Shown: positions 6,413 to 14,798 of the stretch, one piece after another | Position numbering within the stretch: the stretch's first letter is position 1 | Layout: each line of letters begins with the position of its first letter | Assembly: GCA_030616605.1 (NCBI GenBank) | Contig: JAUWWY010000003.1 | Span: forward strand, 6,707-70,706 | From: a bacterium | GTDB lineage: Bacteria > Patescibacteriota > Minisyncoccia > Minisyncoccales > CG1-02-41-26 | Direction: 5' to 3' | DNA: 64,000 nt | Notes under the pieces: generated by a model | What the model saw: only the letters and a program-made list of their open reading frames with translations | Told to the model about the DNA's origin: nothing | Database searches by the model: none | Made by a program: the position numbers and the translations under genes

Positions 6413-6425
6413 AATCTGTAGCTAT

Positions 6426-6468
6426 CACCGTCCCGACCGGTGTTAAATTGACACCGGTCGGGACGGTG
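6426..6468. other. Perfect 18-bp inverted repeat with a 7-nt loop between convergent genes
   Basis: The sequence is CACCGTCCCGACCGGTGT-TAAATTG-ACACCGGTCGGGACGGTG. Neither side has a clear U-tract, so a terminator role is uncertain. Confidence 0.7.
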
Positions 6469-6495
6469 TAAATTGACTCTCAAAATGAAGTAATA

Positions 6496-6531
6496 AAAAA
6501 AGTCCTCTTAATGAATTAAGGGGACTTTTGG
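6496..6531 (-). terminator. Intrinsic terminator of WG gene 1
   Basis: Minus-strand hairpin AAAAGTCCCCTTAA-TTCA-TTAAGAGGACTTTTT followed by a T-run. Confidence 0.7.
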
Positions 6532-6548
6532 TTTGTTTTGGGATTGTG

Positions 6549-6986
6549 TCAAGCTTCTCGGGTTCCGTCAGGACGAACCTGAAATTGCTTGCTGCCCTGT
6601 CTGGCCCAAGCCAAGCCTTTATGGAAGACACCGATAGAGTCATACCTCTGCTTGTAAGCAGGGTTTCCATCAGGATGGATGTGAAACTGTTCCCCGTTCT
6701 TCGTGGCTCGAGCCAGGCCTTTATTGAAGGAACCGACAGAATCATACTTCTGCTCGTAGGCAGGGGTTCCGTCAAGACGAATATGGAAGTATTCGCCGTC
6801 CTTTCTGGCCTCAGCCAAGCCTTCATGGAAGAGACCGACAAAGTCATATCTCTGCTCATAAGCAGGAGTTCCGTCAGGACGAATGTGAAACTGCTCGCTA
6901 CCCTTTTGAACCACAGCCAGGCCTTCATGGAAGGAACCGACAGAGTCATACATCTGCAACAGTTTTTCTCTTGTTAAAATTTCCAT
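6549..6986 (-). CDS. WG/KWG-type beta-repeat protein, 4 modules of 34 aa, no signal peptide
   Basis: 145 aa. It has a 12-aa cap followed by repeats of YDxVGxFxEGLAxxxKxxxxFHIRPDGTPAYxQR. The upstream SD is AAAGGAGAAAAGGAATG. Confidence 0.85.
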   Translation of the reverse strand: MEILTREKLLQMYDSVGSFHEGLAVVQKGSEQFHIRPDGTPAYEQRYDFVGLFHEGLAEARKDGEYFHIRLDGTPAYEQKYDSVGSFNKGLARATKNGEQFHIHPDGNPAYKQRYDSIGVFHKGLAWARQGSKQFQVRPDGTREA

Positions 6987-7046
6987 TCCTTTTCTCCTTT
7001 ATTATTGTTAATTATTGTTGTTAATGTACAAGCTAAAACTATTTAT

Positions 7047-7075
7047 AATATATCATACATATTCATTATTGTCAA
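7047..7075 (-). promoter_or_regulatory. Promoter TTGACA-17-TATATT for WG gene 1
   Basis: The minus strand reads TTGACAATAATGAATATGTATGATATATT. Confidence 0.6.
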
Positions 7076-7100
7076 AGAATATTAAACTGATGGAATAAAG

Positions 7101-7133
7101 AAAAGTCCTCTTAATGAATTAAGAGGACTTTTG
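7101..7133 (-). terminator. Intrinsic terminator of WG gene 2
   Basis: Palindrome AAAAGTCCTCTTAATGAATTAAGAGGACTTTT with a T-run on the minus strand. Confidence 0.75.
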
Positions 7134-7148
7134 GATTGTTTTGGATTG

Positions 7149-7484
7149 TCAACCTACTCTGGTTCCGTCAGGACGAATGTGAAACCGTCCGTTACCCTTT
7201 CTGACACAAGCCAGACCATCTTGGAAGGGAGCGACCCAGTTGTACCTCTGATTGTAAGCAGGGGTTCCGTCAGGATGAATGTGAAACCACTTGTTGCCAT
7301 TTTGGACCACAGCCAGACCTTCATGGAAGGGACCAACAAAGTCATATCTGTGCTTGTAAGCAGGGGTTCCGTCAGGACGAATTTGGAACTGTTTGTTATC
7401 CTTTCTGACCCAAGCCAGGCCCTCATGAAAGGAACCGACAGAGTCATACATTTTTAACAGTTCTTCTTTTGTTAAGGTTTTCAT
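7149..7484 (-). CDS. WG/KWG-type beta-repeat protein, 3 modules
   Basis: 111 aa with the same cap and 34-aa modules. The ORF track frame matches its paralogs. Confidence 0.85.
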   Translation of the reverse strand: MKTLTKEELLKMYDSVGSFHEGLAWVRKDNKQFQIRPDGTPAYKHRYDFVGPFHEGLAVVQNGNKWFHIHPDGTPAYNQRYNWVAPFQDGLACVRKGNGRFHIRPDGTRVG

Positions 7485-7531
7485 TCCTTTTTTCCTTTAT
7501 TATTGTCAATGTACAAGTTAAAACTATTTAT

Positions 7532-12441: not shown

Positions 12442-12473
12442 AGTTTATCCTTTCTTTCAGGTTTTAACCGATT

Positions 12474-13958
12474 TCAAATACCCAATATCTCTTGAAAAAG
12501 TCTTGCCTCATTTCTCAAAAGATACGATGGTAAGAAAATCTGATTCCAACGATCAAGATTTTCTTGGTCGCTGAAAATTCGTTTCAGAATCTCGTTCCAT
12601 CTTTGAATATCCTCTTCTTCAGCCCCTAATTGAGATGAGGGCTTGAGCTGTGCTTTGGCAATGATGTCCTGGATTGAAACCGGAGTTGAAACCGGGACTT
12701 GTTGAGATTTTAGAAACAACTTATTCATTTCAACAAGAGACCCTGCCAGATTTTCTCGCAACTTCTTTGCTCCATCGCTTGGTTCAAACGCATTAAAGGC
12801 AGCTAGTTGAACTATCCTATAAGCATCTTCAGTAGTTAAACCAAAAGCAATGCCAGATTCTTTTAAAACTTCCTTTACTTCACTTGAAGCATAGCAGCCA
12901 CGAGATTCAATCACCTCCAAAAGCATGTTATCCGGGTAGACCACCAAGTCCTTAAGAACCCGGGTCATAGTTTTAAGGGAACGGATTACCACATGGAAAA
13001 GATCAGGCCAAGCCACCCTTTCCACACAGGACTGTTCAATTGCCCTTTCTTCCCAGGTCCTGATATTATCCATAATCATCAGGTAATATCCCTTTGCCAT
13101 TCTTCCCATGCCCTCTGTTTGTTCGGTAGAGATAGTGTTTTTCTTATGGGGCATGGCTGAAGAACCTTTTTGTTTTTTACCAAAGGGCTCCTGATAAATC
13201 GGTCGGCCACTCCTGGCTCCCAGGCGAATAGTGATGGCGATTTTGTCAAGAGTGAGTACAATTTGGCAAAGAGCCTGGGCAATTGGCGCGTAGAGCTCCC
13301 TAGGAATTATCTGGGTTGCCCCATAATAAGGTTCAAAACCCAGAATTCTCAGTGCTTCTTTTTCAACTACTGGCTCTATGGTTCCGTAGTTACCGATTGC
13401 CCCGGATAACTTAGAGTACTTCAGGTTTTGTTCGGCTTTCCCTAAATTATCAATATCAACCTCAAGGTCTTGACGCCAAGTAAGGCAACGTTTGCCAAAT
13501 GTTTGAAGCTCTGCTTCCTGACCATGAGTGCGGGCATTCATTATAGTGTAGCGATATCTCCGAGCCATTTGTTCCAGAATTGTCTCAAGTGCTTCATAAT
13601 ACATTTTCACTAATAGGAGCGATTCTTTTAGCATTCCGGCAAAGGGTGCTTCTTCAGTATCGTAAGAAGTTATCTTTTTATGGAAATATAACTGAAGTTC
13701 GGGCGATAAAAACCTTAACCGCTCCTCAAGGAAAGCGTTTAAATCGTGGTGAATCTCTTGGTCTTTTTGCAACCACCAATCCAAATCTATTGGGGTTTTG
13801 GTCAAGATTGCTGAGATTTCCTCGTAGATTTTCTTAGGCACTTTGCCCAAATTAGCCATCGCCTGAATCACTGCTAGCTCGGTTCTCTGCCAGAGACCTA
13901 ACTTGTGTTCGTTAGACCAAATTACAGTAATCACTTCGTCTTCATATCTTTCTATCAT
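12474..13958 (-). CDS. purB: Adenylosuccinate lyase, start revised to MIERYEDE
   Basis: Fumarate-lyase family (SSAMPHKKN signature). GGAGG lies 8 nt upstream of the ATG at 13958. The 33-codon extension in the ORF track overlaps the promoter and terminator. Confidence 0.8.
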   Translation of the reverse strand: MIERYEDEVITVIWSNEHKLGLWQRTELAVIQAMANLGKVPKKIYEEISAILTKTPIDLDWWLQKDQEIHHDLNAFLEERLRFLSPELQLYFHKKITSYDTEEAPFAGMLKESLLLVKMYYEALETILEQMARRYRYTIMNARTHGQEAELQTFGKRCLTWRQDLEVDIDNLGKAEQNLKYSKLSGAIGNYGTIEPVVEKEALRILGFEPYYGATQIIPRELYAPIAQALCQIVLTLDKIAITIRLGARSGRPIYQEPFGKKQKGSSAMPHKKNTISTEQTEGMGRMAKGYYLMIMDNIRTWEERAIEQSCVERVAWPDLFHVVIRSLKTMTRVLKDLVVYPDNMLLEVIESRGCYASSEVKEVLKESGIAFGLTTEDAYRIVQLAAFNAFEPSDGAKKLRENLAGSLVEMNKLFLKSQQVPVSTPVSIQDIIAKAQLKPSSQLGAEEEDIQRWNEILKRIFSDQENLDRWNQIFLPSYLLRNEARLFQEILGI

Positions 13959-14036
13959 TTCTCTTCCTCCTTTTTTGTTAATGTTCAAACTTATGAAAGT
14001 TATATTAAAACAAATCTGTGAAAAAAGCAAGAGAAG
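13959..14036 (-). promoter_or_regulatory. Promoter-leader cassette, copy 3 (diverged): TTGCTT-17-TAATAT with leader AAAAAAGGAGG
   Basis: Shares CTCTTGC...CAGATTTGTTTTA and the A-rich SD leader with copies 1 and 2. Confidence 0.55.
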
Positions 14037-14071
14037 AAAAAGCCCGTCAGAGGTCAAAAGACATGACGGGC
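14037..14071 (-). terminator. Intrinsic terminator after the 14103-14600 gene
   Basis: Stem GCCCGTCA...TGACGGGC followed by TTTTT on the minus strand. Confidence 0.7.
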
Positions 14072-14102
14072 ATTGAGATTGAGCAACGAGCTGGTCTTAT
14101 AT

Positions 14103-14600
14103 CTACCAGGCTCGAAAGCTCTCCAGAGTAGTAACGAGATGCTCCTGGTTGCGAATCGTGTTCATTGCCAGGTTGAGCTGGGCTAGAGCCAAGTCGATTT
14201 GGCTGACTGAAAAGGGCTGAACAATGTCCTTGTTCTGCGGCCAAGGCTCCCAGACCTGTTTGCCATCCATTTCGAAAGAGACGGAATTTAAGCCACTCTC
14301 GGGAAACTCGCGGATGATGAGCCGATCAAACTGTTCGTCACCATTATAATCGTGGCCGCTGATGGCGAACGGATTGGGCGCCGATTCCTCATACTTCTTA
14401 GGGTGAAGATGAACCAGGCGATACCAGGCGCCGCTCCACATGTATTCTTCTATCAGCACGTCATAGACACCGAGTTCACCCTCGTAGAGGTTCCAAGCAT
14501 CGAGATTTGACTTTGATTTGCTACTAATGAAAATGACTGCTACACAGAGGAGTATCACGACAGCGAAGGCAAGCAGGTTTATTGGTGTAGTTACTCTCAT
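14103..14600 (-). CDS. Hypothetical membrane-anchored protein
   Basis: 165 aa. The N-terminal TM segment is INLLAFAVVILLCVAVIFI. The SD AAGGGAGAG lies upstream. Confidence 0.6.
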   Translation of the reverse strand: MRVTTPINLLAFAVVILLCVAVIFISSKSKSNLDAWNLYEGELGVYDVLIEEYMWSGAWYRLVHLHPKKYEESAPNPFAISGHDYNGDEQFDRLIIREFPESGLNSVSFEMDGKQVWEPWPQNKDIVQPFSVSQIDLALAQLNLAMNTIRNQEHLVTTLESFRAW

Positions 14601-14656
14601 TTTTCTCTCCCTTTGTTTTTGTTAAAGTTCTGGTTTCTAATTTCAAGAACACCTAA

Positions 14657-14685
14657 ATTATAGCAAATTTTATACCTTTTGTCAA
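14657..14685 (-). promoter_or_regulatory. Consensus promoter TTGACA-17-TATAAT with an extended TGC
   Basis: The minus strand reads TTGACAAAAGGTATAAAATTTGCTATAAT. Confidence 0.7.
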
Positions 14686-14687
14686 GA

Positions 14688-14716
14688 TTAAAATATCCCG
14701 AGGCGTAGCCTCGGGA
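14688..14716 (-). terminator. Hairpin after tRNA-Lys
   Basis: Stem TCCCGAGGC-GTA-GCCTCGGGA followed by a U-rich stretch, TATTTTAAT. Confidence 0.5.
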
Positions 14717-14721
14717 ATTTG

Positions 14722-14798
14722 TGGTGCGCCCGGAGGGAATCGAACCCCCGACCCTCGGCTTAAAAGGCCGGTGCTCTACCTAACTGAGCTACGGGCGC
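14722..14798 (-). tRNA. tRNA-Lys(UUU) with genomically encoded CCA
   Basis: Hand-folded cloverleaf: acceptor GCGCCCG/CGGGCGC, anticodon loop CTTTTAA, T-loop TTCGATT, 3' ACCA. Confidence 0.85.

Follow-up and report, generated by a model that had tools for sequence, protein, structure and literature searches.

A block of purine and WG-repeat genes with Shine-Dalgarno leaders in a Paceibacteria-type genome without an anti-Shine-Dalgarno motif: probable horizontal transfer within Patescibacteria

A stretch of 64,000 nt from the Patescibacteria contig JAUWWY010000003.1 (assembly GCA_030616605.1, positions 6,707 to 70,706 of the forward strand), hereafter called the window, contains a block of about 9.2 kb (approximately nt 5,520-14,690) that differs from its surroundings in composition and in expression signals. 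The block holds ten genes, all on the minus strand: five encode WG-repeat proteins (WG_beta_rep), and the others encode an orotate-phosphoribosyltransferase-like protein (Pribosyltran; PRTase below), PurH, PurE, PurB and a hypothetical protein (hyp). In the direction of transcription the order is hyp, purB, purE, purH, the orotate-PRTase-like gene and the five WG-repeat genes, followed by a palindrome at 6426-6468. The WG array, the orotate-PRTase-like gene, purH, purE and purB had all been named in an earlier reading made from the letters alone (the sequence-only reading), and these assignments were recovered by Pfam, NCBIfam and PDB searches. The features of the block are listed below with their strand in parentheses.

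5516-6412 (+): 3' part of the giant surface-protein open reading frame (ORF) 1988-6412, with two Lcl_C (DUF1566) domains by Pfam and block-like composition
6426-6468 (no strand): GC-rich palindromic hairpin with 21-nt arms (inverted repeat I12), between the stop codon of the giant ORF and WG1
6549-6986 (-): WG1, WG-repeat protein of 145 amino acids (aa); PF14903, E=3e-23; Shine-Dalgarno (SD) motif AAGGAG
7149-7484 (-): WG2, WG-repeat protein, 111 aa; PF14903, E=1.3e-23
7637-8074 (-): WG3, WG-repeat protein, 145 aa; PF14903, E=1.1e-22
8224-8763 (-): WG4, WG-repeat protein, 179 aa; PF14903, E=3.6e-38
8915-9250 (-): WG5, WG-repeat protein, 111 aa; Pfam and alignment to gene WG-a of scaffold_626 (see below)
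7012-9333 (-): 75-nt WG promoter module in five copies (repeat family D3, identity up to 93%), with one copy in the gap 5' of each WG gene
9391-10032 (-): orotate-phosphoribosyltransferase-like PRTase, 213 aa; PF00156; TIGR01367 (pyrE_Therm) 134 bits, cutoff 150
10173-11774 (-): purH, bifunctional aminoimidazole carboxamide ribonucleotide (AICAR) formyltransferase/inosine monophosphate (IMP) cyclohydrolase, 533 aa; Pfam MGS+AICARFT_IMPCHas
11944-12441 (-): purE, class I type with SAHR motif, 165 aa, second gene of the purB-purE bicistron; PF00731
12474-13958 (-): purB, adenylosuccinate lyase, 494 aa; Lyase_1; TIGR00928 293 bits, cutoff 326
10042-14042 (-): three copies of an 82-nt pur promoter/leader module, upstream of the PRTase gene, purH and purB; repeat family D5/D4, 93% and 63% identity
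14103-14600 (-): hyp, near-orphan protein, 165 aa; ORF with two homologues only
14657-14685 (-): perfect consensus hyp promoter, TTGACA-17-TATAAT with extended -10; scan score 12 of 12

All ORFs of the block are intact. The Pfam domains AIRC, Lyase_1 and MGS+AICARFT_IMPCHas were found above the gathering thresholds in PurE, PurB and PurH, respectively, and all four enzymes score below the NCBIfam equivalog cut-offs (PurH 355 against 402; PurE 136 bits against 150 for TIGR01162; the values for PurB and the PRTase are given above). These proteins are divergent versions of the enzymes as found in the candidate phyla radiation (CPR). The PDB matches of PurE are N5-carboxyaminoimidazole ribonucleotide (CAIR) mutases, PurB matches 1c3u with E=5e-62, and the best PDB matches of the PRTase are all orotate phosphoribosyltransferases, its phosphoribosyl pyrophosphate (PRPP) loop being present. 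The start of purB was placed at the ATG at 13958, which has an SD motif in front; the longer TTG-initiated ORF to 14057 is an over-extension. Compared with canonical pur operons (purEKBCSQLFMNHD type), the PurE, PurB and PurH of the block are homologous and keep the motifs GSSAMPHKKN (PurB) and SAHR (PurE), and the gene neighbourhoods resemble those of two Patescibacteria clusters, L007 (purH / purB-purE-purC) and L006 (purH / pyrF-PRTase); the PRTase is 56% identical to the one adjoining pyrF in L006. Unlike these operons and the clusters in L003 and L007, the window lacks purC, purK, purA and the early steps, and its genes form separate transcription units. No other pur or pyr gene was present inside the 64-kb window (purF, D, N, L, M, K, C and A are all absent there). 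The protein encoded by hyp gave no Pfam or NCBIfam match, and just two homologues (81% and 40% identity) turned up in a search of 5.8 billion proteins; by reading of its sequence, the N-terminus has a hydrophobic segment resembling a membrane helix, which suggests a membrane-anchored orphan protein.

The WG paralogues (6549-9333) are mutually 63-74% identical in protein sequence with a synonymous divergence (dS) of 0.5-0.9, and despite this divergence their terminators hardly differ and three promoter modules match the reference copy at 93% identity. The WG repeats also yield long ORFs in three frames, and the protein database held no self-hit.

The sequence-only reading had judged by eye that the block is more GC-rich than its flanks, and this was confirmed by sliding-window GC, tetranucleotide and codon-usage analysis against the host part of the window. 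The GC content is 0.432 in the block and 0.330 in the host part with rRNA masked, and every 1-kb window between approximately 5.0 and 15.0 kb has a GC content of 0.42-0.46, compared with 0.28-0.37 for the protein-coding flanks. Further GC peaks are found at the rRNA operon (30-38.4 kb) and at a large ORF at the right end of the window. The GC content at third codon positions (GC3) is 0.35-0.60 for block genes and 0.20-0.28 for host genes, with host chaperone and ribosomal genes at around 0.24. By tetranucleotide use, 3-kb windows of the block lie at an L1 distance of 0.38-0.53 from the host profile, and those of host DNA at 0.12-0.21. The codon log-likelihood ratio (LLR; leave-one-out, with a host model trained on 32 host genes) is negative in all 11 ORF parts of the block and positive for every other gene, with values of 0.12-0.30 for these 32 host genes and about 0 for the ORFs 57451-59751 and 59889-63992.

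The expression signals of the block follow a layout of their own. Nine transcription units were identified, each with its own promoter and a GC-rich long-stem hairpin terminator, and only purB-purE is bicistronic; in each unit a terminator hairpin is followed by a sigma-70 promoter of the TTGACA-17-TATAAT type, an A-rich leader, an AAGGAG SD motif and ATG. When an SD motif was required to lie 5-12 nt upstream of the start codon, it was found in 10/10 block genes and in 3/35 host genes, and the median same-strand intergenic gap is 149 bp in the block compared with 6 bp, with frequent overlaps, in the host. These counts bear out two earlier statements, namely that the block consists of mono- or bicistronic units with promoter, AAGGAG-type SD and terminator, and that it contrasts in this with SD-less, overlapping host genes. 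Promoter and terminator matches of host genes are at the level of shuffled background and those of the block far above it. Just 5' of the SD, 9/10 block genes share the leader motif G[AT]AC[AT]TT[AG]A[CA]AA, which hardly occurs in the remainder of the window or in the other loci fetched.

Two promoter modules are repeated within the block. The WG module has the form TTGACA-17-TATATT with extended -10 (TACTAT in the fifth copy; scan score 11 of 12), and a 32-nt terminator hairpin, AAAAGTCCTCTTAAT..ATTAAGAGGACTTTT, lies 3' of each WG gene. The pur module has the form TTGyyT-17-TAGTAT with a palindrome at the presumed start site and a GAAC(A/T)TTAA leader, and it was also found upstream of purH in L001 (a locus of scaffold_626, below), pyrF in L006 and purB in L007. 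The start-site palindromes (10075-10090, 11813-11828 and 13995-14010, minus strand) read GGTTTAnTAAACC for the PRTase gene and purH and AACTTtcatAAGTT for purB; they look operator-like, putatively, and are matched by no Rfam family. A riboswitch or leader RNA in the repeated pur leaders was considered and rejected, as Rfam returned only the tRNA at the gathering threshold and only sub-threshold noise at E<=1. An integron cassette array was likewise rejected: the units have their own promoters, the inter-gene repeats are promoters and terminators, and neither attC sites nor an intI-like ORF were found.

The SD motifs stand in a genome whose ribosome is not of the matching type. The 3' end of the host 16S rRNA was located by Rfam alignment as follows.

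36837-36850 (-): 3' end of the host 16S rRNA, GAUCAUUUCUUUA; aligned to RF00177 positions 1520-1533 with high posterior probability

Compared with the consensus GAUCACCUCCUUU, the anti-SD CCUCC is replaced by UUUCU in this end. Loss of the anti-SD motif is known from a subgroup of Parcubacteria that presumably forms no SD helices (Tsurumaki et al. 2022, PMC9297842). The host resembles that subgroup in having the 16S end CAUUUCUUUA instead of CACCUCCUUA and genes without SD; it differs in that SD-bearing foreign genes in such genomes were not described there, whereas here 10/10 genes of the island have strong SDs. Given that the host 16S rRNA lacks the anti-SD, the SDs of the block are a trait of the donor. 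The predicted duplex between block leaders and the 16S tail has an energy of -8.4 kcal/mol with the canonical tail and -5.8 kcal/mol with the UUUCUUU tail of the host, while leaders of host genes give about -2.2 to -2.5 kcal/mol with either tail; thus some residual pairing of the purine-rich block leaders is possible.

Both flanks of the block are host-like in GC3 and codon LLR (1-5.5 kb and 14.8-59.9 kb), indicating that the block is an insertion between two host segments. The sequence-only reading had let the block start at 6420; the real start lies approximately 0.9 kb further left, inside the giant ORF. The maximum-likelihood change point falls at codons 1176-1182 of ORF 1988-6412 (nt 5516-5534) and the codon-LLR maximum at codon 1182; GC3 rises from 0.24 before codon 1176 to 0.42 after it, which agrees with the earlier remark that the DUF1566 tail of this gene shares the composition of the block. 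At this change point the first of the Lcl_C (formerly DUF1566) domains begins (best stretch residues 1169-1317), and upstream of it Pfam recognized two LTD domains and one fn3 domain; the left junction is thus in frame inside a 1,474-codon ORF, near a domain start. A match to the giant protein in L098 concerned the host-like LTD domains and not the Lcl_C tail. On the right, composition alone places the change point at about nt 14,799 and homology to a second metagenome contig (L114, see below) starts at 14,689, so the right edge lies between about 14,690 and 14,799. The hairpin 6426-6468 looks like a bidirectional terminator. The repeat search found no direct or inverted repeat flanking the block and none common to its ends and the host flanks.

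The right edge adjoins a conserved host gene cluster, with the following features.

14696-14716 (-): terminator hairpin 3' of tRNA-Lys, from the terminator scan
14722-14798 (-): tRNA-Lys(UUU) with encoded CCA, 6 nt 3' of the dnaJ stop codon
14805-19010 (-): host flank with dnaJ, dnaK, grpE and hrcA; host composition, syntenic with Paceibacteria relatives

A DnaJ scan of species-representative genomes gave relatives at no more than 62% identity, from the Paceibacteria groups Wildermuth-, Nealson-, Staskawicz- and Gribaldobacteria. Of the 48 closest relatives, about 40 have a tRNA-Lys(UUU) no more than 600 nt downstream of dnaJ, and the gene order of the window between 14.8 and about 25 kb matches that of relatives such as L008. 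The tRNA-Lys is therefore a native host gene that closes a conserved block. Synteny of hrcA-grpE-dnaK-dnaJ-tRNA-Lys ends right after this tRNA, and homologues of the pur, WG, hyp or Lcl_C parts were found downstream of dnaJ in none of 80 dnaJ loci, the closest relative among them having 62% DnaJ identity; one locus (L038) has a partial PurH-like match about 9 kb upstream of dnaJ. In L008 a stretch of higher GC content after tRNA-Lys was considered as a comparable island and rejected, since by reading of the translations it encodes housekeeping-type proteins (L9, CTP synthase, L27).

The tRNA-Lys is indeed, as the sequence-only reading had noted, the only one of four tRNAs in the window with an encoded CCA. 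As a mark of foreign origin the CCA had to be rejected, because 15/57 tRNA-Lys(UUU) genes of relatives encode it too, and the tRNA sequence itself is uninformative with regard to host or donor origin, with a best identity to any relative of 84%. A hairpin of -10 kcal/mol or stronger lies right 3' of tRNA-Lys in 23/44 relatives, and the hairpin at 14696-14716 is probably native to the host. If so, given that homology to L114 begins only at 14,689, downstream of this hairpin and outside the tRNA gene, the foreign DNA begins after the terminator and not in the tRNA. The earlier statement that the block abuts the 3' end of tRNA-Lys(UUU) is thus correct as to adjacency, with the amendment that the insertion lies behind the tRNA terminator; the tRNA-Lys is a boundary of synteny and not a demonstrated integration site.

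Parts of the block were found, at 80-96% nucleotide identity, in contigs with different surroundings. PurH gave 2,901 matches, and the best 120 of them are 58-100% identical, with Patescibacteria making up most of the few source names. The closest PurH (89% aa identity over the aligned part) is encoded on a 59-kb contig, ERZ23486233 scaffold_626, of which we inspected two loci, L001 and L117. The whole purH unit from promoter to terminator (10098-11851) is 90% identical to L001 over 1,754 bp, and its neighbours there are a tRNA-Leu(CAA) gene and a gene for a HAD-family hydrolase. In L001 (9828-11680) the purH unit lies directly 3' of tRNA-Leu(CAA), with an apparent C-terminal frameshift that places the last ~26 residues in another frame; 3' of the purH terminator just the first ~30 nt of another pur promoter module are left. 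Scaffold_626 also bears two tandem WG genes that are 80-85% identical to those of the window at the nucleotide level, including the upstream region. Among the window copies, WG5 is closest to WG-a of scaffold_626 (85% nucleotide identity including the upstream region, 79-81% aa identity), and it is nearer to that gene than to any paralogue in the window; the WG terminator is 100% identical to L117 10711-10742. This contig has a GC content of 42-44%. In L117 an SD motif precedes 15/19 genes, including core genes and those for a secretin, ftsW and a protease, many genes have AAGGAG/GGAGG together with 'TTTAACAA'-type leaders, and most GC3 values are 0.42-0.54. The use of SDs, leaders and GC3 across these genes indicates that the dialect of the block is the genome-wide norm there.

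The second close match is L114, a 1.3-kb Logan contig (SRR22580794) in which hyp, terminator, pur promoter module and purB follow in the same order at 88-96% nucleotide identity, the first 550 nt of purB being 96% identical; the 81% homologue of hyp sits on this contig. Relative to their nearest relatives the block genes have ratios of nonsynonymous to synonymous divergence (dN/dS) of 0.14-0.39, indicating purifying selection. Relatives of PurB are common in Patescibacteria contigs, the metagenome relatives being 52-71% identical. The sequence-only reading had argued that such genes are usually missing in streamlined CPR genomes; this needs correction, as the purine genes are not exotic for CPR, given the number of PurH matches, the at least 58% identity of the best 120 and their mostly patescibacterial named sources, and since both families are common in Patescibacteria the transfer was one within CPR. 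The last context look-up (P0135, L121) retrieved just a distant solitary WG gene.

Taken together, the composition and codon use, the foreign expression signals, the relatives at 80-96% nucleotide identity in other contexts and the break in synteny lead us to conclude, with a probability of roughly 0.8, that the ~9.2-kb block was acquired horizontally from a different, SD-using Patescibacteria lineage with a GC content of ~43-44% by a Paceibacteria-type host with a GC content of 33%. The recipient is a non-SD-using genome whose 16S rRNA lacks the anti-SD. The sequence-only reading had suggested horizontal acquisition, and the same lines of evidence support it, with another CPR lineage as the donor. 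Such a transfer is the simplest account, and it would have been recent enough for composition and signals to be still unameliorated. The right end is located directly behind the probably native terminator of the hrcA-grpE-dnaK-dnaJ-tRNA-Lys cluster, and the left end is found in frame within the host surface-protein gene, giving this gene its two Lcl_C/DUF1566 domains; entry may have occurred by recombination without an integrase encoded by the element. The genes would since have been retained by selection and transcribed from their own promoters, and their translation may depend mainly on the A-rich leaders, with only weakened pairing to the UUUCUUU tail of the host. The enzymes are predicted to supply late purine steps, that is, formation of CAIR by PurE, conversion of succinylaminoimidazole carboxamide ribonucleotide (SAICAR) to AICAR and of adenylosuccinate to adenosine monophosphate (AMP) by PurB, and conversion of AICAR to IMP by PurH, as well as a PRPP-dependent step from base to nucleotide by the PRTase.

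The contig L114 bears on the question of whether the block is, or derives from, a discrete mobile element directed at the tRNA-Lys locus, such as a genomic island, a prophage remnant or a circularising cassette array. In L114 the hyp promoter is immediately preceded by the right arm and loop of the palindrome 6426-6468: positions 1-45 of L114 correspond to window positions 6411-6452 joined to 14689, with the hairpin in the same orientation, one mismatch and the arm aligned to L114 positions 1-27. Since the hairpin directly adjoins the hyp promoter in this contig, which is from another sample, the array of 8.3 kb (6426-14689) has its ends side by side there. The junction may stem from a circular or tandem form, or from a chromosome with its genes in a different order, where the terminator serves another gene; the end of the contig falls within the hairpin. 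A circle or tandem of 6426-14689 would give such a junction, homology with relatives begins and ends at transcription-unit borders, and the block adjoins a tRNA, as the purH unit of L001 also does with tRNA-Leu(CAA). However, ORF and Pfam searches of 5.4-14.8 kb found no integrase, recombinase, transposase, replication or phage gene, no att repeats or partial tRNA copy were found in the window (the 26-nt 3' end of tRNA-Lys is single-copy there with up to 3 mismatches allowed), the insertion point is behind the tRNA terminator, and foreign composition extends past the hairpin into the Lcl_C tail. A viral collection held no relatives of PurH, WG4 or hyp, and a phage origin by way of the hairpin was rejected, since the 18-nt arm matched a single viral contig of 70% GC with no further similarity, which we ascribe to chance. 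A dedicated mobile element is therefore very unlikely to be the explanation.

A different concern is that the junctions are artefacts of assembly or binning, such that DNA from a co-occurring Patescibacterium of 43% GC was misjoined into a contig of 33% GC. The DNA comes from a 74,240-bp contig of a metagenome, no independently assembled copy of the junctions turned up when PurH, hyp and the giant protein were looked up by exact match, L114 demonstrates that the array exists elsewhere without these flanks since both of its ends are adjacent there, and tRNA genes and palindromic hairpins are classic points of mis-joining. Against this, the host-like segments on both sides (1-5.5 kb and 14.8-59.9 kb) would require two independent mis-joins, one of which would have had to keep a 1,474-codon ORF in frame near a domain start, no repeat is common to the block ends and the host flanks, and the right junction falls behind the tRNA terminator, outside the conserved tRNA itself. 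We consider a chimera quite unlikely.

Several observations weigh against the horizontal-transfer reading. The PurB and PRTase of scaffold_626 are of other types (26-30% aa identity) and no single contig carries the whole arrangement; this contig is therefore from a relative of the donor and not from the donor of everything. The nearest relatives of the block genes are still 0.14-0.38 away in dS, which indicates that none of the relatives sampled is the immediate donor. The species-representative genomes scanned did not include a close sister (best DnaJ identity 62%), and the search for an integrase, a transposase, att-type direct repeats or a second copy of the tRNA 3' end was negative. GC3 is also uneven within the block (0.35-0.40 for the pur genes, 0.45-0.60 for the WG genes and hyp), and the block may be composite, either because the donor region was itself a mosaic or because more than one event was involved, as may also hold for the Lcl_C tail beyond the hairpin. 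Finally, genes of the PurH and PurB families are SD-bearing outliers with high GC3 in many other SD-poor contigs too, so that the signal may in part belong to the gene family itself.

This last point was followed in ten low-GC, SD-poor Patescibacteria contigs (L003, L091-L094, L098, L099, L101, L102 and L107). Most metagenome relatives of PurB stand alone, with a promoter and SD of their own and a GC content exceeding that of the contig; in L003 a GC-rich, SD-led purH comes after a host-like purM-L-Q-guaA-purE-B-C operon. Across these ten independent contigs an SD was found in 9/11 genes of the PurH/PurB families compared with 13/140 other genes (Fisher's exact test, p=2.6e-7), GC3 was above the local mean in 11/11 (z 0.7 to 4.9), and the copies in L099, L101 and L102 retain the SD though their GC3 is nearly host-like. 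It is possible that this pattern reflects repeated transfer of PurH/PurB genes among Patescibacteria, or that the signals were retained for a reason. The second option, applied to the window, would make the region native and vertically inherited, its composition and SDs being kept by selection, e.g. as a specially regulated or translated nucleotide-metabolism regulon, and the pairing of about -5.8 kcal/mol that block leaders retain with the host tail (host genes -2.5) would fit such a role. On the other hand, selection does not normally hold GC3 0.1-0.35 above that of the genome, and host chaperone and ribosomal genes stay at the host level; unrelated parts of the block (WG, hyp and the Lcl_C tail) bear the same signature, block parts recur at 80-96% nucleotide identity in contigs whose gene neighbours and background are quite unlike those here, and synteny breaks at exactly this spot. 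Vertical inheritance of the region is thus very improbable.

The block could belong to a broader, so far undescribed exchange among Patescibacteria of self-contained 'promoter-SD-gene-terminator' units, late purine genes above all. This idea draws on the SD-bearing, GC3-high outliers in SD-poor and probably anti-SD-less genomes together with homology that ends at unit borders, and the joined array ends in L114 are compatible with a circular or tandem intermediate that moves without an integrase of its own. We regard it as rather unlikely. In a variant, the SD-like leaders may be kept for a role in these hosts other than classical pairing with an anti-SD.

The general phenomenon, a compositional island formed by lateral transfer, is already known, and the block is not a new kind of system. 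It resembles known genomic islands in its atypical GC content, codon and oligonucleotide use, its sharp boundaries, its adjacency to a tRNA, its cargo of accessory metabolic and surface-protein genes and its absence at this locus in all relatives examined, which have at most 62% DnaJ identity. In contrast to such islands it has no integrase and no flanking direct repeats, it was inserted after the tRNA terminator, one of its ends is fused in frame into a host gene, and it stems from a related CPR lineage instead of a distant phylum. Metabolic enzymes are known to be patchily distributed and exchanged among unrelated CPR lineages (Jaffe et al. 2020, PMC7304191). As in those cases, the nearest homologues here are all in Patescibacteria; there, transfer was inferred from gene trees and presence/absence and purine genes were not treated, whereas the present block is physically delimited with the promoters, SDs and terminators of the donor still in place.

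A well-delimited and fairly recent transfer between CPR lineages is of interest given that such exchange has so far mostly been inferred from gene trees. Promoters, ribosome-binding sites and terminators of the donor are retained in a host without anti-SD, and with the donor signals kept and the anti-SD of the recipient lost, the locus offers a natural test of how SD-led genes are expressed under SD-independent translation. The SD motif could also serve as a simple marker of foreign DNA in this subgroup of Parcubacteria, and the locus suggests how a streamlined, symbiont-like genome may gain late purine steps piecemeal. The two points that deserve most interest are the contrast between SD-bearing genes and a ribosome without anti-SD, and the recurrent outlier status of late purine genes.

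Outside the block, a second compositional outlier was observed at the right end of the window, where a 1,367-aa ORF (59889-63992, minus strand) contains a Peptidase_S74 (endosialidase chaperone) domain and has a GC content of 0.43, a tetranucleotide correlation to the host of 0.31 and a codon LLR of about 0; the ORF 57451-59751 is partly alike. The rRNA operon (30018-38542) includes a 3.3-kb stretch between tRNA-Ala and the 23S gene with two ORFs, which encode a HEPN_Swt1 protein (34656-35441) and a protein with a mechanosensitive-channel transmembrane helix (33525-34205). Directly 3' of rpmE lies a release-factor gene (40280-41228, plus strand) whose product has 246 aa and a PCRF domain that matches from profile position 96 onwards, so that the usual N-terminal domain is missing.

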